Counted from the first letter of the stretch, positions 19,292 through 39,661 are shown. The stretch: DNA of 64,000 bases from Phyllosticta citribraziliensis (GCF_038025025.1 NW_027117339.1:124001-188000), one strand, 5' to 3'. The notes: generated from the letters alone by a model not told the origin. A program made the numbers and translations.

Positions 19292-21408
<2,117 letters not shown>

Positions 21409-25557: not shown

Positions 25558-27075
25558 ATGGCCTCTCCCCCGAGCAGCGAGAAAAAGGGCCCTGCTTCCA
25601 AGCTGGCCCAGAGCGTAGACTTGGATGGACACAACTTGCCCCCCAGCCCGGCCCCGAGCAGCCCCCACAATGGCAGGAAATATGCCCTGGCGACGGAGCT
25701 GGTGTACACAGAAGGAAACGATCAGTACAACTCGAGTAGCATGCCCATTTACCAGGTATATTCTCTACGCCACCGAGCGTCGGCGGTCAGAAAATCAGGG
25801 ACAAAATATTGATGACTCAAACAGACCGCGACCTTCAAGCAAGACTCTGGCAGCGGCGGCGGTGAGTATGACTACACGCGCTCCGGAAACCCCACACGAT
25901 CGCACCTCGAGCGTCACCTGGCCAAGATTATGAGCGCCCGGCGCGCCCTCGTCGTCTCTTCCGGCATGGGCGCTCTGGATGTGATTACGCGCATGCTGCG
26001 GCCCGGCGACGAGGTTGTGACTGGCGACGACCTGTACGGCGGAACGAACCGACTTCTCAAGTACCTGTCCACTCACGGGGGCATCATTGTGCACCACGTC
26101 GACACGACGGACCCGGAAACCGTCAAGGCCGTCATTGGTCCCAAGACGACCATGGTTCTCCTCGAAACGCCCACAAACCCGCTCATCAAGGTCGTCGACA
26201 TTCCAACCATTGCGTCGGCGGTGCACACGGCCAACCCGGCTGCCCTTGTGGCCGTTGATAACACGATGCTCTCCCCCATGTTGTTGAACCCCCTCGACAT
26301 GGGCGCCGACATTGTCTACGAATCTGGCACCAAGTACCTATCTGGCCACCACGATGTGATGGCTGGCGTGCTCGCCGTCAACGATTCCGCAATCGGCGAC
26401 AAGCTATTCTTCACAATCAACGCATCCGGCTGCGGTCTGGCGCCGTTCGACTCGTGGCTGCTGATGCGCGGCATCAAGACGCTGGGCGTGCGCATGGAAA
26501 AGCAGCAATCCAACGCCCAGCGCATCGCCGAGTTCCTGCAAAACGAGGCCGGCTTCCGCGTCCGCTACCCGGGCCTCAAGTCGCACCCGCAATACGACCT
26601 GCACTGGAGCATGGCGCGGGGCGCAGGCGCCGTGCTGTCCTTTGAGACGGGCAACGTCGACGTCTCGGAGCGCATCGTCGAGAGCGCGCGGCTGTGGGCC
26701 ATCAGCGTCAGCTTTGGCTGCGTCAACTCGCTGATTTCCATGCCGTGTCGCATGAGCCACGCCAGCATCGACGCGAAGACGCGTGCCGAGCGCAACATGC
26801 CCGAAGACCTGATTCGCCTGTGCGTCGGCATCGAAGACCCCGAGGATCTGATTGACGACTTGAAGAGAGCGGTGCGTCTCCCTTTTTACATCCTTGTCTG
26901 ATTGTAGTGCTAATACTTGGTGCAGCTCGTCCAAGCCGGCGCCGTCAAGGTCACGCTCAACGGCATCCGCGCCCTCGACGCAAACGAGGCTGCCGTCGAG
27001 AGCGACGTCGCAGCCGGCCAACAGATTGCGGCCGACGGCTTCAAGGAGCCCGAGGCCGCGGGCACGTCGCAGTAG
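25558..27075 (+). CDS. Cystathionine beta-lyase (PLP-dependent Cys/Met metabolism family; MetG/Str3-like)
   Basis: YDYTRSGNPTR, LETPTNP, VDNT, ESGTKYLSGHHD PLP-lysine motif; introns 25756-25824 and 26872-26925. Confidence 0.92.
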
Positions 27076-27559
27076 GCCATTTCCCTTCCACATCGAGCAG
27101 TCTTTGGCCCATGCAGACGCGACTACGGCATCTGGCCAGCCGTTGATTGCAAAGAGAGTTGCTGAGGACGTCGGTCGTCCGGCAGGCTGGCATGCGGCAG
27201 GCAGCAGGAGGCAGCTACAGAGCTAGTGCCGCTTCCGCTCTGGTGGGTGGTGCTGTCTGAGAAAGTGCTTGGCCGTCTCGACCGACATCATTCAAAAAAG
27301 TGCCCCTCTTAAAAACGAAATCTTTCCATGACGCGGAAATGGCTCGCGTGGGTGGCGTGGTGGCTGCCACCGGATAGCAGCCGCAGCAGCAGCAGCAGCA
27401 GAGATGGTGCCACCGGAAACATCATCAAACAGTTTGACGTATGTCCGTGTGCGCGGTCAAGACGGGACGCGGGTCGCGGGTGCGGTGGACAGATGGATAC
27501 GGCGAATGGCGTGAACGCATTACTTGACATTCCACAATTTACACGACATGATCTCTTCC

Positions 27560-27628
27560 CCCCTTTTTCCTTTTTCCTTTTTCCTTTTTCCTTTTTCCTT
27601 TTTCCTTCTTCCTTCTTCCTTTTCCCAT
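27560..27628. repeat. (TTTTTCC)n heptamer microsatellite
   Basis: Direct tandem units downstream of the lyase gene. Confidence 0.8.
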
Positions 27629-28352
27629 CTACATCGATCCCTGTGGCGTGGCATCAAACAAGCTGGGCAAACAGGCAGAAAAGACGGCAGGCAGGCAGGC
27701 ACAAGGAGGGAAGAAGGTAGGCGCTAGAGGGAAGACGCGTTTACCTGTGAAATGGGTGGGTGGGTGAATTGAGGCGCGGCGAGGCGAGGCGTCTAGATAA
27801 GCAAATGGAGGATTTATTTTGTGCTTGTGGCTGGGCTGCGTTAGGGGGGGATGAGTGGTGTGGCGTGGCGCGCTGTATCTGCTGTATTTGCTTGCTGTAT
27901 CTATATCTACTATACTCGCTGTGTATATATGAACGGATGTAATAGATGTGGGCCAAGCATCGGTTGTTCGACCGTATCTTCTTCGCGCCCGCCTGCCTAG
28001 TCTTTCCTTTTCCTTCACGTGGCGTACCGTGTTTTCCTGCTTGGAAGTTTTCTGGCCGGCCGCTGGAGAAACGACAAGGTGTCTAGAGAAGAGTAGGGAA
28101 GAGAAGAGTAGGGAACAAAAGAGAAGAGAAGAGAAGGTCCAGTTCTCCCTTAATATGAAGTTTTAGAGACCTACCACCCGTCCGGAGATCACGCAGGATC
28201 CCCTTATCCTATCCCCTCATCCCATCTCCCCATACCAAAAAACGCCAGACGGCATAGTCTCCCTTTAGTCTTCCTCGCCCCTTTTCTTCTCTCACTTACT
28301 CCTCTCACTTACTCCTCTCACCACTAAAGCCTCCTCAGATCCAACGCTAGAA

Positions 28353-29236
28353 TCAAGCTGTCTTGACGTGATCTGTGACCTGGAAGAGGTCAAGCTCGCG
28401 GCAGAGAAGTGGCACAAGTTCAATCGGCATACACCTGCTGTGCTTCTTCTCAAGCTTCTCCTTGATTAGAACATGCATGTCTTGGTGGACATTGCCCTTC
28501 AGTTTGTCCATGAGCTTGACCGGGCAATTTCCATGTTGGGCGCCGACTCTTTCCAGCCAGCCGTCGAGGGAGGACTGGCCACCGGGCCGTTGATCGTTCT
28601 GAGGCACCGTGTCGGTGGCAGACTTGGCCGCTGAGATGATGAGGCTGCTGGGAATATGAGGCCGCTGGGAACATGAGGCCGCTGGGAACACGAGGCCGCT
28701 GGGAACACGAGGTCACTGGGAACATGAGGCCGCTGGGAACATGAGGTCGCTGGGAACACGAGGCCGCTGGGAACATGAAGCTGCTAGGAACATGAGGCCG
28801 CTGGGAACATGAGGTCGCTGGGAATATGAGGTCGCTGGGAACATGAGGTCACTAGGAACATGAGGTCGCTGACGTCCTTAATCGGCAGGTACCGATCATC
28901 TCGCGCCTCGGACTCCTCGTCAAATACCATGGCGAAGAGGTTGCGCAAGCGCGAGTTGGATCTGCGATAGTCCGTCGGTCTGCCCCAGGAAAGACCCAGG
29001 GTCTTCAGTCCAGGTAAGAGCTTCTTGCCCTTCAACGGGTTGCTTTGTAACCTTCTGGTACTAGTTGGACCATTGAACATCTTCAGCAGGTAGCTGGATG
29101 CCCGCCTCTCACGGCTGATCCAGATTGAATCATCGCCGGCGGTCATCCTGATCCGTCGTGGGTTTTCGACGAACTCCACGCTGATGTTCTTGTTTTCGAA
29201 CCTGCCTTTGAAGGTCTTGATCTCGAGTCCGGCCAT
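28353..29236 (-). pseudogene. Orphan gene copy A, interrupted by a 17-bp VNTR
   Basis: N-part MAGLEIK...NPLKGKKLLPGLKTLG and C-part ...SLDGWLERVGAQHGNCPVKLMDKLKG... lie in different frames on either side of the array; both parts align by eye with copy B. Confidence 0.7.
28641..28871. repeat. 17-bp minisatellite, 13 units plus a partial, consensus GAGGYCGCTGGGAACAT
   Basis: Units read directly with exact 17-nt period from 28641. Confidence 0.97.
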
Positions 29237-29299
29237 TATTAGACAAGTTAGTATGGGGAAGTAAGAATAAGGTTGAAGATTATTTAATATGGGTGGAAG

Positions 29300-29600
29300 G
29301 CGGAGAACCTAACACTTTAGGAGAAGATACGGGGGGTAGAGAACTAGTTATCTAAGGGGAACGCACAAGAGGTGGAGAACTAGACACTTTAGGAGAAGAT
29401 ACGGGAGAGGTAGAGAACTAGTTATCTAAGGGGAACACACAGGAGGTGGAGAACTAGCTACTTATAGGGAACACATAGGAGGCAGAGAAGAAGGCCTTTC
29501 TAGAGAAGGTATAGGAGATAGAGAAGTGGAACTTGAAGGAGAACACATAGGAGCCGGAGAACTAGTTACTCCCAGAGAACATGCGGGAGGCGGAGAACGT
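29300..29600. repeat. Degenerate 18/36-bp minisatellite with GRGAAS core
   Basis: GAGAAC at 29303, 29339, 29375, 29413, 29449, 29557, 29593, with GAGAAG/GGGAAC at the intervening half-periods. Confidence 0.85.
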
Positions 29601-30512
29601 CGACCAGGACGCCGCACATCTGCTTCGGCTTCGGCTCATACTTCTCGGAGCGGCGACCGGAGGCGGCTTTAGCGATCAGGTGGGTCTCGTAATCGGCCAT
29701 GATGACCGGCATGAATACTGTCTTGAAGACGTCGTTGAAAGACGTCTCGTCTCTGGTCATGTCTGGGCGACCAATCGAAAGCGGGTTGTCGCCCATCGGC
29801 TTCTCGACAACGGCATCCTCTTCTTTCTGACCGGCGACAAACTCGCCGTGGTCCCGCTTCCGGCCTCTGGTCTTCGGCTTGGTCTTGGGGCAGTCGGGGT
29901 AATCGCCCTGCACCCATGCCGTGAAGACCACGGTGTTGTCGTGGTCGGCAGCGATGAGTCTCATCTCGCCAAGGAGCTGCTCCAGCGCGTCGTCTGACAT
30001 TTGACGTCCGTGTTGCTCTTCCAGCTTGGCCTTCAGCCTGGGCTTCATGGCGTCAGGCACGTCGCCCTTGCGGGCATCCATCATGGTGATGGGAGAATTG
30101 CCGGCCGTTGCCAGCCAAGGCGCGAGCGTGTGGTTGCCCGGAGGCGGCGGCGGAGGCTGAGCACCAGGCGGAGGGGGCGGGAGAGGCTCGGGCTCATCGT
30201 TGCGCTCATGGTGGGCTCACCGAACATCTGGATCCAGACTTGCCGCATCGTGTTATAGCCTTTTACGGTGTCGATCGAACGGTTGAGCGTTACGCCCAGC
30301 GCCTGGAGGTGCGGCACGAGCGTGTAACCCTTCATGGGGTTCTTTTCCATTCGGGTGATGGACTCGGCACCAAAATAAATGTACGGCTATGGCTTGCCGT
30401 TGCGCTGCATGGTGATGAACATGAAGTGACCTTCTTCGGTGAACTTCATCCGCTTGGATTGGCGGATGCCCTCCATGGGCGGGTTGTCCCGTTTCTCGAC
30501 GTAGTTGGCCAT
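29566..30512 (-). pseudogene. Orphan gene copy B (paralog of copy A) with a premature stop and a frameshift
   Basis: MANYVEKRDNPP...NGKP*PYIYFGAESITRMEKNPMKG (TAG at 30387-30389); frameshift near 30210 before HERNDEPEPLPPPPP...TLAPWLATAGNSPITMMDARKG. Confidence 0.72.
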
Positions 30513-30574
30513 ACTGTCAGGAGAAAAGCTGGAGGAGAGCCTGAGGCGGGATATCAGTAACTGCAGCTGCTAAT

Positions 30575-30740
30575 GGAGATCTAGGTTCAAGAAGAGGAGA
30601 AGTGCCCGCTTACGGAGAACACGTAGGAGCTAGAGAAGGCCATAGCTCGCAGAGATCTAGATTCGAGAAGAGGAGAAGCGCCGACTTATCGAGAACACGT
30701 AGGAGGTAGAGAAGGCTGGCATGGCCCATGGAGAACATGT
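30575..30740. repeat. Two ~76-bp direct repeats with GAGAAC/GAGAAG cores between divergent ORFs
   Basis: GAGATCTAG..GAAGAGGAGAAG..CTTA..GAGAACACGTAGGAG.TAGAGAAGGC at ~30575 and ~30651. Confidence 0.85.
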
Positions 30741-30871
30741 CAGACACAGCGTGGGATAACCATGTAAGGACTCAATAGACTGCCGTGTTCTAGCATTGGA
30801 TCCGAGGAGGCTTTAGGGGCAAGACGACGAAGCCAGAGAGGAAGAGGGCGAGGAAGACGAAGAAGAAGACA

Positions 30872-31471
30872 ATGCCATCTGGCCACCATAGCACCTCGAG
30901 CAGGCCCCACAAGAGGGCCAAGCACGATTCAGAAAAACGCCACGTCCTCGAAGACCTCGTATACAATTCACTCACACCAGTGGTTGACGGCGAGCTCGAG
31001 AAGCTCAGACTTGTCCAGGAGGCGACAGGCGATTTCCTTAGTCCACTACAGTTGGACTTTGGAGCCCTTGTTGGTGAGCTCCAAACCATCATCAAGGAAC
31101 GCCAACAATTTGCGAAAAAGACTGGAGACTTTGCGGGCGCCTTTAAGGACGTCGAAGCCATCACCACGACGCTTGCTCAGTGTTGGGCTGAGAAGGCTAG
31201 AATCAGGAGATCCTTAATGCTCTCCGGATGGGGTGACAGCTCTCCGGAACTTTCCCTTAAAGGAGAACTAAATGTTCTCCTCTCTAGAGAGAGCGCCAGT
31301 TCTCCGGAACTTCCCCTTCAGGGAGAACTAGGTGTTCTCTTCTCTAGAGAGAGCGCCAGTTCTCCAGAGCTATCCCTTAAGGGAGAACTAGTTGTTCTCT
31401 TCTCTAGAGAGAGTGCCAGTTCTCCACAACTTTCTTTCAAAGGAGAACTAGACCTTCTCTCCTCTAGATAG
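30872..31471 (+). CDS. Hypothetical protein, basic N-terminus, helical core, C-terminal 20-aa repeats
   Basis: Intact 199-aa ATG-started ORF; RPHKRAK NLS-like patch; SSPELSLKGEL.VL.SRESA-type unit x4. Confidence 0.5.
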   Translation: MPSGHHSTSSRPHKRAKHDSEKRHVLEDLVYNSLTPVVDGELEKLRLVQEATGDFLSPLQLDFGALVGELQTIIKERQQFAKKTGDFAGAFKDVEAITTTLAQCWAEKARIRRSLMLSGWGDSSPELSLKGELNVLLSRESASSPELPLQGELGVLFSRESASSPELSLKGELVVLFSRESASSPQLSFKGELDLLSSR

Positions 31472-31476
31472 AGCAC
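31237..31476. repeat. 60-bp tandem repeat x4, internally palindromic
   Basis: Exact 60-nt period over four sequence lines; units contain AGTTCTCC-N16-GGAGAACT, GAGAAC-N5-GTTCTC and TCTCTAGAGA. Confidence 0.95.
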
Positions 31477-32324
31477 TATTTCCTAAGACGCAAAATTTTG
31501 CCGTCGCTAGTTGCGTAAAAGAGGAAGAAGAGACGCCGGAGCTTTTTTAAGACTGCGCCGTGTAGTGTTATCCTCACCCATGTGTGGCATCATTCTGGGA
31601 TCCTTGCTGCCGGCAAGAAGATTCGCAAACGAGAATGCAGGTGGCTCAGTGCGTGGTGACGACTGCGGCCCCTTCCCCTTTGCTGGTACCTATTCCTTGC
31701 TTTGATTCTTTTGGGGCGACATTATGGTCTTTGCCGAGGCGCCCGAACTGGAGTGCTGCACCGGGATGAGCGGACATTTCCATGGCCGATACGCGGCATT
31801 TTACTTCTTCTTCTTCTTTTCTTTCTTCATTCGATTTTAGAGAGCGACATTCTACGCTTCGCAGAACCACACGAGATGGGATGATAAGAGATGAGCGGGC
31901 GATTCGGTGGTCGACATGCGGCAAAAATCCATTTTTTTCTGATTTATTTTCTGGTCCCTGCAAAGTAGCTAGCACTCTACATTTGCCTCTGCCTTCAAGT
32001 GCAACCTCAGGTGGCTGTAGTTTTCAGATGTGTTAAGACAGGCAAAGGACTTTTAGAAAGAAAATGTCTTGAATAGTGACGGAAGAGCATCAAAAGTGCC
32101 ATTTTCCCGAACGCATTGCGCTGAAATTGCCAGTCACAGCGTGGAGAACTCGTTGATTCGGGCGGAGTGCGGACAAGGAGCATTCGACCGACGTTGCGCA
32201 GCGCGGCGAGGAGCGTTCAAGCCGCAGCGCAAAAGAAGACAGGGAGTTCTTGAGCTTTGTCGGGTCCAATGCCCAGGATCTGCGAGTGGGATTGTGAGCG
32301 GTTGCACGCCCCGACCTCTGCATT

Positions 32325-32831
32325 ATGCTCAGCGACCGTCCCAGCCAGTAGGAACTCGACCCTTTCGAGGTCACCGTAAGTTGATCGTTAGAACGTCAGA
32401 GACGAATAAAGCTGAGTACCGGTCTAGCACGAGGCCCCCTCCCACGGAACACTCCTCACCGAGCAAAAGAAGCGCACCACCAACACCGCCATCCTGGCCA
32501 TCAATATCAAGGCCGAGACGTTCAAGATGGAGACGCTCGTAAGTTTTGTTGCCAGACTTCGAGAAGATACTAAATTATCTCGCAGGACCAGATTGCGCTC
32601 TCGAGGCTTCTGGACATGAAGGATGTTCTGGACAAGCTGGTCTTGGAGACTGGTATTCATCAGCATTGCTTTGGCGAGCTGGGCGGCATTCTCAATGTCG
32701 CCGCAACCAGTGACGTTCCTGACGCCAGCGGCTGTGACATCAAGGAGGCTCCCAGGGGAAGCTTTAGGACGTACCTGAGGGGCCTTCATTGCAGACATAT
32801 ACTCTGCGATCAAGAATCCAGACTAAGATAG
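32325..32831 (+). pseudogene. Three-exon orphan gene with a premature TAG in exon 1
   Basis: ATG 32325, TAG 32349-32351; GTAAGT..TAG intron 32376-32426 and GTAAGT..CAG intron 32539-32585 splice in frame to HEAPSHG...METL|DQIALSRLLDMKDVLDKL...SRLR*. Confidence 0.6.
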
Positions 32832-33248
32832 TGGATTAAGCTGCACTCTCAAAGCCATCTGAGAAAGTACCAACTGAAAATCTGAAATCGCAGGGCGAAG
32901 AGGGGAAAACAAAAAGGAGAAGCCCTTTCTTTGACCCTTCTCTGGCAGATCCGCCAGCGCTCTACATCTTGCCTTTCCGATAATCAAGCTAAAATCCACA
33001 ACAAAGAGCTGTTCTGGTGGTCGCCGCATGTTGACATGAAATTTGCAAATACAAAAATCAGACTGGCGAGCGGAAACTGTTGGAAAACAATACAATATAA
33101 ACGAGAGGAAGGAGAGCAGTTTGTCAGGGCCGGCAGCGCAAAAGCAGAGCGGAGCCCAACAAGAAGGTATGATCGGATTGTGCTCCACAGTCTGGAAGTG
33201 TAATCCCCAAGCCAGCCCACGCGTGGTGAGGGTTACCAGACTGGGAAC

Positions 33249-33850
33249 CTAGTCCTCATCTTTGTCCCAACAGCCGTACAAAGACAAATGTGCCTCGAAG
33301 TCCTGGCTGGTGGCAAAGGCCTTGCCACACGAGCACTCCCAGTACGCGACTTCGACCGTGCGGAGGTGCTTGACGTGCTGCAGCCACTTGTCGTGGCTGC
33401 ATGCCTTCTTGTCCCAGAATTTGCCACAGCTGTGGCACTTGATGGCCGTATCTGGCGATGGGAGATTGGCGAGCGCGGTGAAGAAGGGCTCGCAATGTGA
33501 TTCGATGCCCAAGGATCGTGCCATGGACTTGGCATCATTGATCGACGCCAGCCACCATGTTGATCTCCCGCTCCTGATCGCGTGCGCCGATGGGTAGTCG
33601 GCCTTCAGTTGGGCTTGAACCGTCCTAGAGTGACCTGCAAACTTTTGGCCAGAAGGAGAGTGGAGATATGAAACGAAGAAGTCGCAATGCTTCAACTCCC
33701 CCTTCAGGCGGATAGTCTGGCGGTAGTCGCTGTTGTATCGGAGGGCGTGGTAGTTTCTGTTCTTTGAAATGATTGGTTTCCTTTGCTGATAGGGTCTGTT
33801 CTCGCCATCCTCCACGTTCTCACCGTGATCGTTGGTGTCGTCGAGGAGGG
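33249..33850 (-). CDS. KilA-N/APSES-like domain plus Cys/His zinc-finger protein, copy 1 (5' end uncertain)
   Basis: WWLASINDAKSMARSLGI resembles the APSES terminal W.PL..A..LA...G helix; CHSC-x17-HVKH and CSC..H..C fingers; aligns with copy 2. Confidence 0.55.
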
Positions 33851-33859
33851 AGGGAGGGA

Positions 33860-34440
33860 AGGGGGGGTTGGAGCAGGGGAGAGTAGAGAGGGAGGGAGAG
33901 AAGAGGATCGAGTGTGTATGCAAGGAGCATTCATCTGGTGAGGCGTATGCGGAAGGCTTTTAATGGCTTCATCGCCCTCATTATCCTGCTCAGAGTCCCC
34001 GGCCTAGAACAGTCGGGGGAGAGGGGGGAGGGGGAGGAGAGAGAAGAGAGAAAAGAGAAAGAAACAGCGTATATGTGCAAGGAGCATTCATCTGCTAAGG
34101 TGCCTGCGGAAGACTTTTGATAAAGCCATCGCGCTTGACATCCTGCTCGGAGTCCCTGTCCAGGAGAGTCGGGGGAGAGAGGAGAGAGAGTCTGTGTGCA
34201 TGGAGCATTCGTCTGCTGGGGTGTCTGCGGAAGGCATTTAATGGCGTCATCTCCCTCATGATCCCGCTCGGAGTCCCCTACCCAGGACAGGAGGGGGAGG
34301 GGGAGAGAGGAGAGAGGAGGGTGAAAAGAGAAAGAAACAGCGTGTGTGTGCAAGGAGCATTCGTCTGCTGGGGTGTCTGCGGCAGGCATTTAATGGCGTC
34401 ATCTCCCTCATAGTCCTGCTCGGAGTCCCCTGTCCAGGAT
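33860..34440. repeat. Four 120-160 bp tandem modules (GA-rich tract plus conserved ~75-bp core with GGAGCATTC)
   Basis: Cores TGCAAGGAGCATTC.TCTG...TGCGGAAG...TCCTGCTCGGAGTCCC anchored at 33924, 34081, 34202, 34354; minus-strand reading DSEQDYEGDDAIKCLPQTPQQTNAPC repeats. Confidence 0.9.
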
Positions 34441-35490
34441 AGTTGGATGGTGCAGAAACACGCATCCAAGATGCTGGGCTTTCTGCCTGCAGCTTGAATG
34501 CTCCCTGTTACCCCCCGCCGGAATCCTCGGGCAAGACGATCGAGACCCGGTTCCAGTCATAAACGCGTCCCCGCATCGACATTCGCGGTAAGCGAGTTCT
34601 TCCGGTGCAAATCTACGGTCGTGTTGAATGTGCCTTGTCCAGTTCTTGAAAGGCATTTTTGTCTTGTCCCAGCTCAGGCGACATTGACCGCATCGTATTT
34701 TCTGGTCGGCAGCAGGACGATTGGCGACTGCTTGAAAAAAGTGTACACATTGGCTTAGTATACCAAGCTTCTCGGCATACGTACGGGCATCCTGAAGAGG
34801 TAACAGGATTATCGACTGCGTGCCCTTCTTGAGCAGGAAGCGCTGAGGGAAATCCTGCTCAAGCTGTTGTCTGTCGACATCAGCTGCTGAAATTCCAGCC
34901 ATCTTCCACATGAAGGTGGCATAGCAATATCCTTCCTCAATGTGGGCAATCAATCGCTTTGTTGTCGGAGGATCGCTGGAAAGCCTCATGTATATGTTGC
35001 TGGGGTTTTGGTAGACGAGAGGTTTCGGGGGTTCACCACCGCTCGTGGTGCGCTCTTCGATACGTTGGGTGTTTACCTGGGAATCTAACAGCTCGTCCAG
35101 CTCCTTGTCGTTGTATTGGGCGGTGACTTTGTCTTCAGCAGCAAGTGCTGCTGACCTCCGGGCCCTCTGTTCATATCTCGTCACTTCTGGTTGGACGGTG
35201 GCTTTCCTCTTCCGCCTTGGCCTTTTGCTCGCGGGTTCCGTTGAGTCAATGGGTTGCGTAGGCAGGACGAGCTGTTCTGCTTCCTGGACCTGGGCTGCCG
35301 GTGGTGGGATAGCACTTTGTTTGGCGGCTTGGTCTCGTCTCTGGGGCGCTTCACATGCCCGATCAATTTGCTCTAGAGCAGTGTGTAGCTCTTCTTCCTG
35401 CTCCGATGCGTAGTTACGGATGAATAATCTTCGTGAGGTCAGAAACCTCCCGGCTCCTCCTCGCTGGGGATCCAGTGGACTGTCATATTT
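34408..35490 (-). CDS. KilA-N/APSES-like domain plus zinc-finger protein, copy 2 (ends uncertain)
   Basis: EGYCYATFMWKMAGIS and LLPLQDARTYAEKLGI match the APSES ..NATQILKVAG and WIPL..AR.LA...GV pattern; CGQC..HIQH and CRC; KRPRRKRK NLS-like patch. Confidence 0.6.
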   Translation of the reverse strand, partial: KYDSPLDPQRGGAGRFLTSRRLFIRNYASEQEEELHTALEQIDRACEAPQRRDQAAKQSAIPPPAAQVQEAEQLVLPTQPIDSTEPASKRPRRKRKATVQPEVTRYEQRARRSAALAAEDKVTAQYNDKELDELLDSQVNTQRIEERTTSGGEPPKPLVYQNPSNIYMRLSSDPPTTKRLIAHIEEGYCYATFMWKMAGISAADVDRQQLEQDFPQRFLLKKGTQSIILLPLQDARTYAEKLGILSQCVHFFQAVANRPAADQKIRCGQCRLSWDKTKMPFKNWTRHIQHDRRFAPEELAYRECRCGDAFMTGTGSRSSCPRIPAGGNREHSSCRQKAQHLGCVFLHHPTILDRGLRAGL

Positions 35491-36200
35491 ATGGTGGGAG
35501 GGAGGCAGATTAGGGAGAGAGAGGAGGAGAGAGGGAGGGAGAGAGAGAGAGAGAGAGTGTGTGTGTGTGTGTTTAGGGAGCATTCATCCGCGTATGCGCT
35601 GGACAGGATTCGGGGTAGCAGTGGAGTAAAGCCGCCGCGCAGAGCTTGCAGGCTTTTCATCTTTCTGGCAGGAGCTTGAACGCTCCCTGTCACGGGGCGC
35701 CACACGGATTGAATGATTCTTGAACACTACTCTCTTTCAAGCACGAAGGCTTCCTGTAAGTACGAGCATCGTCGTAGCGTAAACATGTGAACGTATAAAC
35801 CTCCGATCTTGCAGAATCCTGCAGCTTCGCGAAGGATATTGTGTCGCCTCTAGGCCTAGAGGCGTCTGCCGTCCAGCTAGAGATCCAACGGCAAGGATTT
35901 CTTCGCTTAGTTTGTCGAGGCGGGAGAAACGTGATCATTTGAACTATCCATTCCCGACGATCAAATCGAATGTGGCGAGCTCGCAGAGGTGTTGATATGT
36001 CCCTTGTGTGAAGACTGTGGCAAACGAAAAAGCGGGAACAATTGAACAATGGCGACGATTTGTCGAAAAGTTCAGGGGCTCAGCCATAATGATTGTCAAT
36101 GACGAGGTTCTCTTCACGAAGATGGATGGTTCTGAGAGACCGGGGACTTCTATAGTCCTTGAGATATCGCCGATTCGAATAGCTCGCGAGCCGAACTGGA

Positions 36201-36560
36201 TCAATTCGAAGGGTAGCACTTGTTCCACCGCGGCTGTCCCTCTACACTGTCCTGTACATTCTGACAGCGGCGGGAGCATTCGTGCGGTTGAAGAGGTGCG
36301 TCTGGGGAGCATTCAAGCTCTGTCTCGCTCTGTCTCGCAACAGTGGACATCAGGGCGTAGTAGTTCCCATTCTTCGAAATGATTGGCTTGCCACGTTGGT
36401 GGGGTCTACCCTCCTCCTCTTGGAATTCTTCATCATCAATGCTGGTGTTTTCGTTGCCTGGATCAAATGGGTCATCACTATCATCCCCGATGCCAAGTAG
36501 CTCGTCCTCTCCAGTGGCCTCATACTGGTTTGCAGTCTGCTGTTGTGCCACTAAAGCAGC
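36201..36560 (-). pseudogene. Truncated third copy of the KilA-N-like family
   Basis: GRPHQRGKPIISKNGNYYAL vs copy 1 NRPYQQRKPIISKNRNYHAL, also similar at DNA level; similarity stops after this; same upstream GA-tract/GGAGCGTTC module. Confidence 0.6.
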
Positions 36561-37630
36561 AGCTCTGGTAGCCCTGCGGTTGGTTGGGAGAGAGAGAGAG
36601 AGAGAGTTTGTGTGTGTCCAGGGAGCGTTCGTCCAGTTGAAGGGTAATGCCTCTGCTGTATGATGCCCTGTAGGCCAAGTGACTCGTCCTATCTGGTGGG
36701 CTTGTACTGATCTTCGTAGGTAGGGTGTATTCCGTGGCTGCGCGCTTCTGTTTTTGGCGTGGATCTTTGCAGCTGTAGCGGCAGTCTGGTTGCCCTGCGG
36801 TTGGTTGGTGTATCTCCTGGGTGTCTTTAGTACCAGGCGTAGAGAGGTCGGGATAAGGAGGAGTAGCGTTGCTAAGAGTTGTATCTTGACGCCTCCTTTT
36901 GCTGTCTGCGGCTTGGATTTGGGTCCGGGCCGGGAGAGATAGCGTGACTTGAGTCTGTCGAGGGCTCAAAAGTGAGCCGCCAGGGAGTATTATGCGCTGG
37001 ATGGGTGCCCTTTGCTGCTTCGAAAATTTCGCGGCTTCTCCAAGCCCGGAATTACTCTGCCATGTGGGTTCCAGATCTCGAATCTCGAATGCTCCTCCCG
37101 CGTCCACCGTGGGAACAAACGGAAAAACCCCCCTGTACGCCTTGTCGGCTCTCGGCTGCTTCCTGGCCATTCCAGTATTTACCAGCGGAGCATCCCTGGT
37201 AAAGAGGTTCTCCTGGAATAGGCATTTCATCCACAACGATCTCCGTCCCCTGTGGTAGTGTTCGATGGACCACGCCGAGGGCATGTCAGGCACTCGCACT
37301 CCTGGACTCCTTGTGGCTTTTCCCATTCATTGGATGACTTTGGGTCCCTTGTTCGTTTTCTGGACATGCGAAGATATCGAGGATGACCAAAAAGGAATTG
37401 AGTGAGTTTTTGTTTTTGTCCGGTCCCCAGGGTATGCGAGTCTACGATCCGAGCCATGGGAAAGTCGTCAAGTGAGCCAGGGTTCATCAAACCCATCCAC
37501 AACACAAGAACCAACCCTCCAAACATCAACAGCGAGCAAATCAACAAGCACAACAACCTTACCCCAACAGCCGCCCTCGCTCTCTCACAAGCCGAGGGCC
37601 GCGCAGGTGGTCAAGGCGCCGCCAGACACG

Positions 37631-37638
37631 TATAAAAG
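37631..37638 (+). promoter_or_regulatory. TATA box upstream of the 157-bp duplication
   Basis: TATAAAAG followed by a CT-rich stretch. Confidence 0.4.
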
Positions 37639-37678
37639 GGCGATTCTCCTCCGCCCAACTCCTCTCCTTTGCAACAAC

Positions 37679-37992
37679 AACATGATCAGCCGCGTGAAGG
37701 TCCCCAGACCTGATGGCTGTGACACGCGGGTCAGGGCTGCCTCCCCCAAAGCCTGGGCGGGTGGGAAACCCCAGCGACGTTGGTGCCGTACCCGGGCGGC
37801 ACTGACGCGCTGGGGGGCATAATGCTGTGAATGTGAACATGATCAGCCGCGTGAGAGTCGTCGGACTTGATGGCTGTGACACGCGGGTCAGGGCTGCCTC
37901 CCCCAAAGCCCGGGCGGGTGGGAAACCCCAGTGATGTTGGTGCCGTACCCGGGCGGCATCGACAAGCTGGGGGGTACAATGCTGTGAATGTG
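37679..37992 (+). repeat. 2 x 157-bp tandem duplication, candidate structured RNA
   Basis: Copies start at 37679 and 37836 and differ at 15 positions; several self-complementary stems. Confidence 0.9.
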
Positions 37993-38728
37993 CTTGCTTG
38001 CTTGACTTGACCTTGTGCGTTTGGAGGTGGCGACGCGAGGGCGATGGAGGAGAGAGTGTGAGAGGGATGGAGCGGAGTCTCGAAGCTCGAAGGCAGCTCC
38101 TCTGATCGTATGTCTTGAGCGGATGTGCTTTGAGTTGGTCGGTGGTCGAGGGATTCGAGCAACAGGTGGACTCTGGTATTCAACAGACGTTAGGGAGCGT
38201 TTCTCCTCCGCCTTCAGACTTTCCATGCTCTTGTCACCTGGCAAATCAGTCCACGGCCGCAGCGTCAATCGCTTGTTCAACGACTCTTCATCTTCGCTTC
38301 AGAAAGTACTGCTCGAGGCCTGACTCCGTGATGACTACAGGCCCACACCGACTGACTGAGAAGCAGGGTCGCATTCGATGAGAAACCCCCATAAATTGAC
38401 GGCCATCCGCTCACAGATACACGAAACGTCTTGCGTCGGTCGTTGTCTCCCGCTTTTGTAGACGGCCGGGATGGCGTGCTCAGTGCGTTGCCGGTGAGGC
38501 GGGAGCGGGTCCGCTGCTCGATTCAGCGAGGCGGAGAGCTCTGGCCGCCGTCACCAACAACGTCATTTTTCATGCGTATGGTGAGAAGGCAGGAAGCCAG
38601 GTCATTCGCATCGCATTCCTTGATTTGGCGACTTCGATTGGTGCGTTGATTTATAGGCACGTCGGCCGGTCATTCTGAGATGTTGAGCCAAAGCTATCTG
38701 CGTGCGCTTGCTGCATCAACTCAACACC

Positions 38729-39661
38729 ATGGCGACATTTACGTATGACCTACCTTGACGCTCGTGGCTGGACTGCCGTCGAATGACTGACTTGAGTAGT
38801 AAAGACTCGTACGCCCACGGCACCTATGCCGCTCTCCGCCCGGCCTACCCTGATCATCTCTACGACAAAGTCATCAGCTACCACGAGGGACCGCGCACCA
38901 CAGCTCTCGACCTCGGCTGCGGTCCCGGCATCGTGACGCGAGCCGTGGCGTCCACCTTCCTTACCGTGACGGGCGTCGACCCATCGCCGGGCATGATATC
39001 GCAGGCAGAGCAGCTCACGGCACGCGACAGCTTCCCCAACGTGCGCTACCAACACGGCGCAGCCGAAGAGCTCAACTTTGCGCTCGACGGCAGCGTCGAC
39101 GCCGTGGTGTCGGGGGAGGCGGCGCACTGGTTCGACTACTCGCGGCTGTGGCCAGAGCTGCACCGGGTGCTGCGGCGCGAAGGCACCGTCGCCTTTTGGG
39201 GCTACGCAGACCCCGAGTTCGTCGACTACCCGCGCGCGACGGCGATTCTCAAGCGCTGGACCTTCTCCGACGACAAGGATGCCTTGGGCCCGTACTGGAG
39301 CCAGCCCGGGAAGAGGATCGTCGAAGGATTGTACCGCGACATTGTGCCTGACCCGCGGTACTTTGGGGACGTGCAGAGGATCGAGTACGAGCCCGGCACG
39401 TCAGGCCCGCGCAGCGGTAAGGGTGAAGTGGTGCTTAGTCGGACGGCAACGGTGGAGGAGTGGAAAGAATATATGCGGACGTGGAGCGGGTGTCATGCGT
39501 GGCAAGAGGCGCATCCGGAGCAGACCAAGAGGAGCGCGGGCGGGCCAGGCGATGTGATGGATGCGATATACGACGAGATGATGGAAGCCGAGGAGTGGAA
39601 GGCAGACCAACAGCTGGAGCTGGAGTGGGGAACGGGAGTGGTGATGGCTCGGCGGGTGTAG
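38729..39661 (+). CDS. SAM-dependent small-molecule methyltransferase (Tmt1/Crg1-like)
   Basis: MATFT|KDSYAHGTYAALRPAYP (intron 38743-38799); ALDLGCGPG, GVDPSPGMI, EAAHWFD, LGPYWSQPG. Confidence 0.85.

Follow-up and report, generated by a model that had tools for sequence, protein, structure and literature searches.

Phyllosticta citribraziliensis is an endophytic fungus of citrus leaves, and the subject of this report is an island of about 10 kb in its genome that lies between a gene for a Cys/Met-metabolism pyridoxal-phosphate (PLP) enzyme and a class-I methyltransferase gene, within a window of 64,000 nucleotides (GCF_038025025.1 NW_027117339.1:124001-188000; one strand, 5' to 3', all positions being counted from its first letter). 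One half of the island (about 33.2-37.3 kb) holds three tandem copies, B1, B2 and the remnant B3, of a small gene whose product is predicted to join a divergent winged-helix domain to two C2H2-like fingers, and each copy is preceded by a similar motif-bearing module. The other half (about 28.06-31.5 kb) holds two copies of a two-domain orphan, A1 and A2, a full and a partial copy of another orphan (C and C') and arrays of short motifs. Two further orphan open reading frames (ORFs), D and E, complete the inventory (Table 1).

Family B: copies, predicted fold and relatives

B1 and B2 are 31% identical over 183 aa (E 3e-27), and a stretch of 44 residues in B3 is 48% identical to B1 (tblastn, E 5e-6). 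The complete unit measures about 190-230 aa, in B1 and B2 as well as in the database proteins P0002 and P0005. Finger 1 (C-x2-C-x13/14-H-x3-H) is found in B1, B2, P0002, P0003, P0006, P0007 and P0009, and finger 2 (C-x-C-x12-H-x5-C) in B1, P0002, P0006, P0007 and P0009. The Pfam family zf-C2H2 matched these sequences at best with E 0.42-0.84, i.e. with about 11 bits and below its gathering score of 25.2, and a comparison of the family-B profile with the PDB brought up the consensus zinc finger 1mey at E 0.11, which is suggestive only. The label 'C2H2-type domain-containing' is nevertheless carried in UniRef by P0001 and by P0020 and P0021, the latter two being members of the P0007 cluster.

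For the N-terminal domain, an AlphaFold model of B1 built on a 12-sequence alignment has a mean predicted local distance difference test score (pLDDT) of 68.7, with values of 65-86 over residues 11-115; an alignment of 2 sequences only gave 48.3. When this model was compared, independently of Foldseek, with 48,161 PDB representatives, the APSES DNA-binding domain of Mbp1 came first (1bm8_A, Z 10.9, root-mean-square deviation 2.6 over 89/99 residues; a second Mbp1 structure, 1mb1_A, Z 10.4), followed by Bqt4 (5yc2_A, Z 9.0; 6a6w_A, Z 8.4), the N-domain of baculovirus Orf22 (4ye7_B, Z 6.4) and Swi6 (2xfv_B, Z 4.9), with unrelated folds from Z 4.0 down. Residues aligned by structure are 12% identical to those of Mbp1. 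Foldseek also placed 1bm8 first (probability 1.00, template-modelling score on the target (TMt) 0.67, E 1.4e-2), and the PCG2-DNA complex reached a TMt of 0.63. Viral models all had E>0.001 and a score on the query (TMq) of at most 0.37, poxvirus N1R/p28-like proteins (probability 1.00, TMq 0.37) and viral KilA-N proteins being among these weak matches, and the B1 fold is closer to fungal Mbp1 and Bqt4 than to any viral model. The modelling supports an Mbp1-type winged-helix fold for the family-B N-domain, although membership of the Pfam KilA-N family fails. Sequence-specific DNA binding by B1 and B2 is a prediction; what is seen is their co-location with the GAAYGCTCC modules described below.

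Where else does the family occur? A HMMER profile of B1 and B2, run against 1.84 billion representative proteins, gave 11 hits at E<=0.001, comprising seven named Phyllosticta proteins, three unnamed ones and, as the weakest, a fibronectin-like animal protein (P0011) that is spurious. The species hit are P. citribraziliensis, P. capitalensis, P. citrichinensis and P. citricarpa (with members from P. paracitricarpa and P. citriasiana), and five hits, P0001-P0005, cover the N-domain. A word-index search found nothing with B1 and, with the 12-sequence alignment, three proteins that were all already known; the B2 domain had no usable hit in the ESM Atlas, and a metagenome scan with the B2 protein turned up no relative. 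Among the proteins searched, family B was found only in Phyllosticta, at low copy number, and our literature search found nothing in print on Phyllosticta in connection with KilA-N or APSES. A 19-nt pattern of the module (see below) had six single matches in metagenomes, which are put down to chance because none encodes a family member or has more than 21 nt in common with the island.

P0006, P0007 and P0009 are glutamine/alanine (Q/A)-rich proteins that share with family B only the C-terminal Cys/His double-finger module. A Q/A-rich double-finger protein of this kind occurs in P. citribraziliensis, P. citricarpa, P. paracitricarpa and P. citriasiana, and the finger pair of family B may stem from this conserved protein.

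The closest relative of P. citribraziliensis is, according to the excerpted text of PMC9073689, P. citrichinaensis (= P. citrichinensis). The P0004 protein of this species is collinear, by tblastn, with the island segment that runs from the B3 remnant through the motif into B2 (Table 1), and because of this collinearity at least the B3-B2 part of the island predates the split of the two species; for such close relatives, the segment would seem to be strongly diverged. The C-terminal 45 residues of P0004 contain the short words 'LPHVLW', 'LLQVP', 'PMCS' and 'SSPP', 4-mers of which recur in the minus-strand translation of 29450-29590, including 29538-29589 within the motif array upstream of A1. 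Since the tail shares these 4-mers with the array located there, it suggests that in the sister species the N-half of B2 lies near a GGAGAAC-type array and that the interval is built differently, a lead only, from one gene model.

Motif modules, arrays and the remaining genes

Directly upstream of each of B1, B2 and B3 lies a module of the form GAYGAAYGCTCC-(CA)n-(CT)n, in which, on the coding (minus) strand, GAYGAAYGCTCC is followed by TG/CA-rich and CT-rich tracts. Its motif is GAAYGCTCC, the reverse complement of GGAGCRTTC, and the module is also given as GAYGAAYGCTCCWTGCA. The module copies upstream of B1 have about 80 conserved nt ending in GAYGAATGCTCCWTGCA, after which a CT-rich tract follows; the module of B3 lies at 36588-36634, with further motif copies at 36273, 36306 and 35678. 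In a second context, GCTTGAAYGCTCCC, the motif of the B half occurs at 32210, 34496, 35678 and 36306, and two of these copies stand inverted at the 3' ends of B2 and B3, the one at B2 reading GCTTGAATGCTCCC at 34496. The window has 13 copies of GGAGCRTTC against 1.74 expected, all of them inside 32177-37095, and none of 100 shuffled controls reached 13, the maximum being 5. Because the modules of B1-B3 are alike while the proteins have drifted to 31% identity, and because the module core persists in the sister species, the 5' modules appear to be under constraint. The tetranucleotide TGCA follows the motif in the four copies upstream of B1 and precedes it at 34496. Since TGCA is the core bound by yeast APSES factors, as stated in the excerpted text of PMC4862756, its place beside the motif hints at APSES-type recognition, with the proviso that it is a 4-mer only.

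Tandem repetition is concentrated in the same interval. Tandem Repeats Finder (TRF) reports nine arrays within 28085-37992 and seven small ones in the other 54 kb, and all six arrays with a period of at least 13 and a score above 200 lie inside the island. The five arrays of the A/C half have a GGAGAAC/GRGAACAY core in common. GGAGAAC occurs 25 times in the window, 19 of these in the island (10.5 expected; largest shuffled value 19), and GRGAACAY occurs 22 times, with 18 copies inside 28667-31339 (8.7 expected).

In the A/C half, the two A genes are 30% identical in their N-parts (E 6e-10) and 36% in their C-parts (E 5e-10). The N-domain ORF of A1 (28784-29236) runs into a minisatellite of 17 bp x 14.5 (28626-28871), where it ends at an in-frame TAG (28784-28786); the C-domain (28353-28712) lies in another frame, and by tblastn the similarity of A1 to A2 extends beyond the A1 stop, to 28248. 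The period of this array in the A1 linker is not a multiple of three, its unit contains a GGGAACAY core like those of the intergenic arrays, and the cores of both stand in one orientation throughout. Of 28 GT..AG pairs that would restore the A1 frame as an intron, none has a donor resembling the fungal consensus. With family-A and family-B proteins as queries, tblastn found no additional copy elsewhere in the 64-kb window.

The last 80 codons of gene C are a 60-bp x 4 array with GGAGAAC in both orientations. C' retains the 3' motif array and the 5' region of gene C, most of the body being gone: the inverted pairs (I1-I8) join 28063-28177 with 31298-31465 and 28265-28363 with 30777-30861 at 73-83% complementarity, and blastn aligns 28244-28352 with 30883-30788 at 72.7% over 110 nt. 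With the ends of gene C thus inverted at the left end of the island, the order of this half is C'(-), A1(-), array, A2(-), array, C(+).

Elsewhere in the island, gene D has two short introns, GTAAGT...TAG at 32376-32427 (52 nt) and GTAAGT...CAG at 32539-32585 (47 nt), and two GGAGCRTTC motifs at 32177 and 32210, about 200-350 nt upstream; it probably starts at 32527; otherwise the first intron would belong to the 5' untranslated region. The units of the 157-bp duplication, located in the 1.5-kb stretch between the island and the methyltransferase gene, are 90% identical, and each contains, on the + strand, a long hairpin of about 45 nt that is kept in both copies despite several differences (z-scores -2.0 and -2.4; no Rfam match).

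Further flanking genes encode a DUF2415 protein on the left and an EF-hand protein on the right, and the canonical GTAAGT...YAG introns in the window mark it as eukaryotic. GC content per kb ranges from 0.50 to 0.69 across the window, the island (0.50-0.57) lying slightly below its flanks (0.56-0.62); at third codon positions (GC3), the N-parts of A1 and A2 (A1N, A2N), the C-part of A2 (A2C) and B1 have 0.71-0.80, the flanking housekeeping genes 0.62-0.82. Indices of repeat-induced point mutation (RIP) are unremarkable in 17 of 18 1-kb bins. The one bin beyond both thresholds, 29001-30000, has TpA/ApT 0.98 and (CpA+TpG)/(ApC+GpT) 0.90; because it is the bin richest in TAG-bearing arrays and its GC stays at 0.53, these values probably reflect the arrays, not RIP.

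None of the 113 stop-to-stop ORFs of the interval (at least 55 aa, 27900-38700) matches a Pfam family above its cut-off, the sole row at E<=0.01 being MEKHLA, which with 17.2 bits stays under its own cut-off of 23.7. Rfam has no match at E<=0.1 on 26900-38800, and a scan across the window found no tRNA gene. The first-pass annotation of this DNA had described an interval with no recognisable conserved gene, two internally duplicated families, several disrupted frames and at least six tandem repeats, and this description stands: no island ORF reaches a Pfam cut-off, the paralogy within A and within B is seen in protein comparisons at E 5e-10 to 3e-27, A1 and A2 each have a TAG and a frame change with B3 stopped in all frames, and the repeat count is nine.

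Table 1. Features of the island and its flanks, with the segments of P. citrichinensis P0004 aligned to it (window coordinates)
Feature	Position	Strand	Description
Mitochondrial-type Hsp70	19295-21256	-	housekeeping flank
Cys/Met-metabolism PLP enzyme	25930-26898 (gene end 26901)	+	Pfam Cys_Met_Meta_PP, E 4.4e-120
C' remnant	28063..28363	-	degenerate inverted partial copy of gene C
A1	28353..29236	-	orphan family A, broken; ORF and paralogue comparison
Motif array upstream of A1	29298..29600	+	36/74-bp units with GGAGAACTAG and GRGAACAY; overlaps A2 3' end; TRF
A2	29566..30512	-	orphan family A, pseudogene; TAG 30387-30389, frame change between 30138 and 30210
Motif array, divergent A2/C promoter region	30576..30740	+	76 bp x 1.9, GAGAACAC; TRF
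Gene C	30872..31474	+	199-aa orphan ORF; no Pfam family
Gene D	32376..32831	+	small spliced orphan ORF; sequence inspection, ORFs
B1	33249..33923	-	complete set: APSES/KilA-N-like fold (predicted), then two C2H2-like fingers
4 copies of family-B 5' module	33894..34443	-	upstream of B1; TRF 273 bp x 2, 121 bp x 2
B2	34408..35583	-	391-aa ORF; APSES-like domain (predicted) and finger 1; finger 2 degenerate
P0004 segment 3	35409-34861		N-half of B2, 55% identity
P0004 segment 2	35663-35576		B2 5' module, 75% identity, including 'TRMNAP' = translated motif
B3 remnant	35690..36634	-	acidic N-part plus 'GKPIISKNGNYYAL'; stops follow in each of the three frames
P0004 segment 1	36215-36138		B3 remnant, 73% identity, two stops in the window
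E	36835..37284	-	orphan ORF; first exon of annotated 563-aa model P0001
157-bp x 2 tandem duplication	37679..37992	+	intergenic, before methyltransferase gene; TRF
Class-I methyltransferase	38783-39658	+	Pfam Methyltransf_11, E 1.6e-22

Origin of the island

How might such an interval have arisen? Building on the paralogy, the disrupted frames, the fold, the motif enrichment, the genus restriction and the collinearity with the sister species, we give a probability of about 0.5 to the reading that the island is a native, Phyllosticta-restricted, fast-turnover birth-and-death cluster of putative transcription-factor genes and not a recognisable mobile element. Sub-cluster B would then have arisen by tandem triplication of the gene for a small predicted DNA-binding protein with a divergent winged helix and two C2H2-like fingers, the duplicated unit being the gene together with its own GAYGAAYGCTCC-(CA)n-(CT)n module, and sub-cluster A/C would consist of two copies of the two-domain orphan A and one and a half of C, with the five GRGAAC(AY) arrays interleaved. 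Birth and death would be visible side by side, A1, A2, B3 and C' being dead or dying, B2 having lost its second finger and B1 retaining the full set. The micro- and minisatellites, i.e. the (CA)n and (CT)n tracts and the arrays of 17- to 76-bp units, probably drive unequal exchange and slippage that multiply and destroy the units, the 17-bp array inside A1 being a candidate example of destruction by array growth. In the simplest form of the constraint on them, the modules would stay alike because they are cis-regulatory (promoter) or leader elements, to which the B proteins might plausibly bind in a form of auto- or cross-regulation.

Several points weigh against this interpretation. The link between motif and protein is one of co-location only, and tandem duplication accounts for part of the motif enrichment, since 4 of the 13 copies of GGAGCRTTC and most of those of GGAGAAC lie within arrays. 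The fold assignment for family B depends on a medium-confidence model: Foldseek returned no match to the B1 model at E<=0.001, and no Pfam KilA-N or APSES row appeared for B1, B2, B3 or the 12 alignment members at E up to 10, a range in which HMMER filters remove most matches above E of about 0.1. Family A is without detectable relative or fold. A relation of A to B has a probability of 0.3% by hhalign, and from the PDB the family-A profile retrieved only FtsH (E 0.36), not a meaningful match, so that these comparisons show no KilA-N likeness for A. A word-index search with A2C found no homologue, and in the ESM Atlas the same part met only unnamed clusters (0.93-0.94) of low recognition (1747); a Helitron_like_N cluster at 0.88 is often chance by the tool's own label and was not used. 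Finally, the island ORFs are putative genes, and since B1 lacks an in-frame ATG upstream of its domain and the start of B2, whose sole in-frame ATG falls inside the motif, lies in a leader encoded by the CA/CT repeats, the whole cluster may be dead.

This last thought leads directly to the most serious of the alternatives, which we nonetheless consider unlikely: that the island is non-functional debris, its ORFs dead and its arrays ordinary minisatellites, along with pieces passed on from a duplicated unit, that play no part in binding or regulation. Most copies are indeed broken, none of the five simple ORFs looked up is present in the protein collection, A1 contains an expanded array whose 17-bp period is not divisible by 3, and tandem copies inflate the motif counts. 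Debris would not be expected to look as family B does, however: at 31% identity, B1 and B2 keep long frames together with fold-forming and zinc-ligand positions, as do their relatives in two other species; the high GC3 has been retained; and the 5' module is still recognisable in B1-B3, its core being kept in P0004 ('TRMNAP'), while coding parts have fallen to 30-55%.

An origin by insertion, in which a mobile or virus-derived element would have brought in KilA-N genes and site arrays and later lost its mobility genes, is somewhat more doubtful still. It draws its appeal from the order of a KilA-N-type domain and a zinc-binding C-terminus, which recalls poxvirus N1R/p28-like proteins, and from the A/C sub-island being bracketed by inverted motif-rich copies (28063-28363 and 30777-31465), as well as from the decay of all copies, the many minisatellites and a GC content slightly under that of the flanks. 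Moreover, the KilA-N fold counts as a viral hallmark, and a viral transfer is held to lie behind every fungal KilA-N family (excerpted text of PMC4862756). Against such an origin, transposase, tyrosine recombinase, reverse-transcriptase and integrase domains are absent at E<=0.01 from the Pfam scan of the 113 ORFs, as are the viral hallmarks capsid, polymerase and packaging ATPase. The inner inverted copies belong to a degenerate gene copy that has no sharp termini, and a repeat search over 26900-38800 found neither a direct nor an inverted pair that would frame the stretch from about 28.1 to 38.3 kb, nor a recognisable target-site duplication, the sole long-range pair (I12) being chance-like with 19 nt at 79%. 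GC3 is host-like; scans of IMG/VR with B1, A2C and A1N, which detect close relatives only, found none, and PHROGs gave nothing at E<0.01. The fold is nearer to fungal Mbp1 and Bqt4 than to viral models, the sister species has a collinear counterpart to part of the cluster, and, the paralogues being about 30% identical, the duplications must be old or sequence evolution very fast.

These results also bear on what the first-pass annotation had proposed. It had noted the lack of a transposase, reverse transcriptase, tyrosine recombinase and terminal repeats and had called the module decaying, all of which agrees with the 113 ORFs, the island borders and the broken state of both A copies and B3. 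The further step to a selfish or mobile module loses ground in view of the missing mobility domains and border repeats, the host-like GC3 and the low copy number of the family, and that to a virus-derived insert in view of the missing hallmark domains and of IMG/VR or PHROGs relatives. The label 'KilA-N-like' holds for the modelled fold of family B (Mbp1, Z 10.9) but neither for the Pfam KilA-N profile nor for family A, and the proposed pairing of DNA-binding proteins with site arrays gains from the APSES/KilA-N-type fold, the fingers and the module before each B copy, binding itself being inferred only. The interpretation as a whole is partly supported.

One further arrangement is implied by the public annotation. 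P0001, the 563-aa 'uncharacterized protein J3D65DRAFT_673902 [Phyllosticta citribraziliensis]', has three NCBI accessions and one UniRef entry, with a count of 2 contigs, and maps to 37284-36835 (E), 36551-36411 (acidic N-part of B3), about 34801-35373 (mid-B2) and 33776-33252 (B1), which therefore requires introns of about 0.28, 1.04 and 1.02 kb. Its structure across the interval joins four units and cuts B2 in mid-domain (after 'LQDART'), so that P0001 is probably an annotation chimera of E, B3, B2 and B1. That these are instead exons of a single gene with two tandem APSES-like domains would agree with the existence of the model in databases, with its exact mapping to four island blocks and with a possible need of B1, having no ATG of its own, for an upstream exon, but we regard it as improbable, since the model drops the helix and finger of B2 and bypasses the 5' module of each copy, B1, B2, P0002 and P0005 each form a complete unit alone, and the introns of gene D, in the same island, measure 47-52 nt, far less than about 1 kb.

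Comparison with known systems and significance

A native birth-and-death cluster, the reading preferred here, invites comparison first with the fungal KilA-N-derived families, which the excerpted text of PMC4862756 gives as SBF/MBF, APSES, Xbp1 and Bqt4. With their members (Mbp1, Swi4 and Swi6; StuA, Efg1, Phd1 and Sok2; Xbp1; Bqt4), family B has in common the fold of the N-domain, the fungal host and the predicted DNA binding. In contrast to their ankyrin repeats or other C-terminal parts (PMC4862756, excerpted text), its proteins are small and end in two C2H2-like fingers. A small protein of this build, as modelled, appears to be previously undescribed, being absent from the four families in that text. 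Whereas the established subfamilies are conserved single genes, family B was found in one genus only and is tandemly multiplied and decaying.

In N1R/p28-like and giant-virus proteins, a KilA-N-type N-domain is followed by a zinc-binding C-terminal module. Family B resembles these poxvirus, entomopoxvirus and giant-virus proteins in this order of parts, but the C-terminal module of the N1R/p28-like proteins is a RING, that of family B is C2H2-like, and the scan of IMG/VR with B1 found no sequence relative. CACTA/En-Spm, Ac/hAT and the P element are DNA transposons with subterminal arrays of binding sites. Short motifs in both orientations near segment ends, together with predicted DNA-binding proteins, give the island a likeness to such elements and to Starships; unlike them, it lacks a transposase or tyrosine-recombinase 'captain' and shows neither sharp terminal inverted repeats nor a recognisable target-site duplication. 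Lineage-specific orphan clusters of filamentous fungi that evolve by birth and death resemble the island in that they, too, are genus-restricted and without Pfam domains, contain tandem copies of about 30% identity and carry pseudogenes beside intact copies, and in a probable structural difference from the sister species; what sets the island apart is a family whose modelled fold is of a DNA-binding type and whose copies each have a conserved, motif-bearing 5' module.

It is tempting, if rather speculative, to go one step further and to regard family B as a fifth branch of the fungal KilA-N/APSES fold, restricted to Phyllosticta, in which a captured or extremely diverged KilA-N domain became fused to the finger pair of a conserved Q-rich protein of the P0006/P0007 type and whose members would bind the GAYGAAYGCTCC(W)TGCA modules in their own promoters; we hold this to be unlikely, at about the level of the debris alternative.

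For Phyllosticta genomics, the practical consequences are smaller: the public 563-aa model is probably a chimera, and the structure of the interval may differ from that in the sister species. With a conserved motif module in front of every B copy, the island is a place where the joint duplication and decay of a putative transcription factor and its site could be put to a direct test. If gene and site do form a self-referential unit, the island would be a natural system in which factor and site co-diverge or die; if all of its genes are dead, it would be an instance of ordinary lineage-specific gene turnover. Should the B proteins work as DNA-binding factors, the KilA-N/APSES fold in fungi would extend past the four known subfamilies, and a genus-specific, fast-evolving form of it that profile searches miss would point to regulatory diversity among proteins now counted as 'orphans'.

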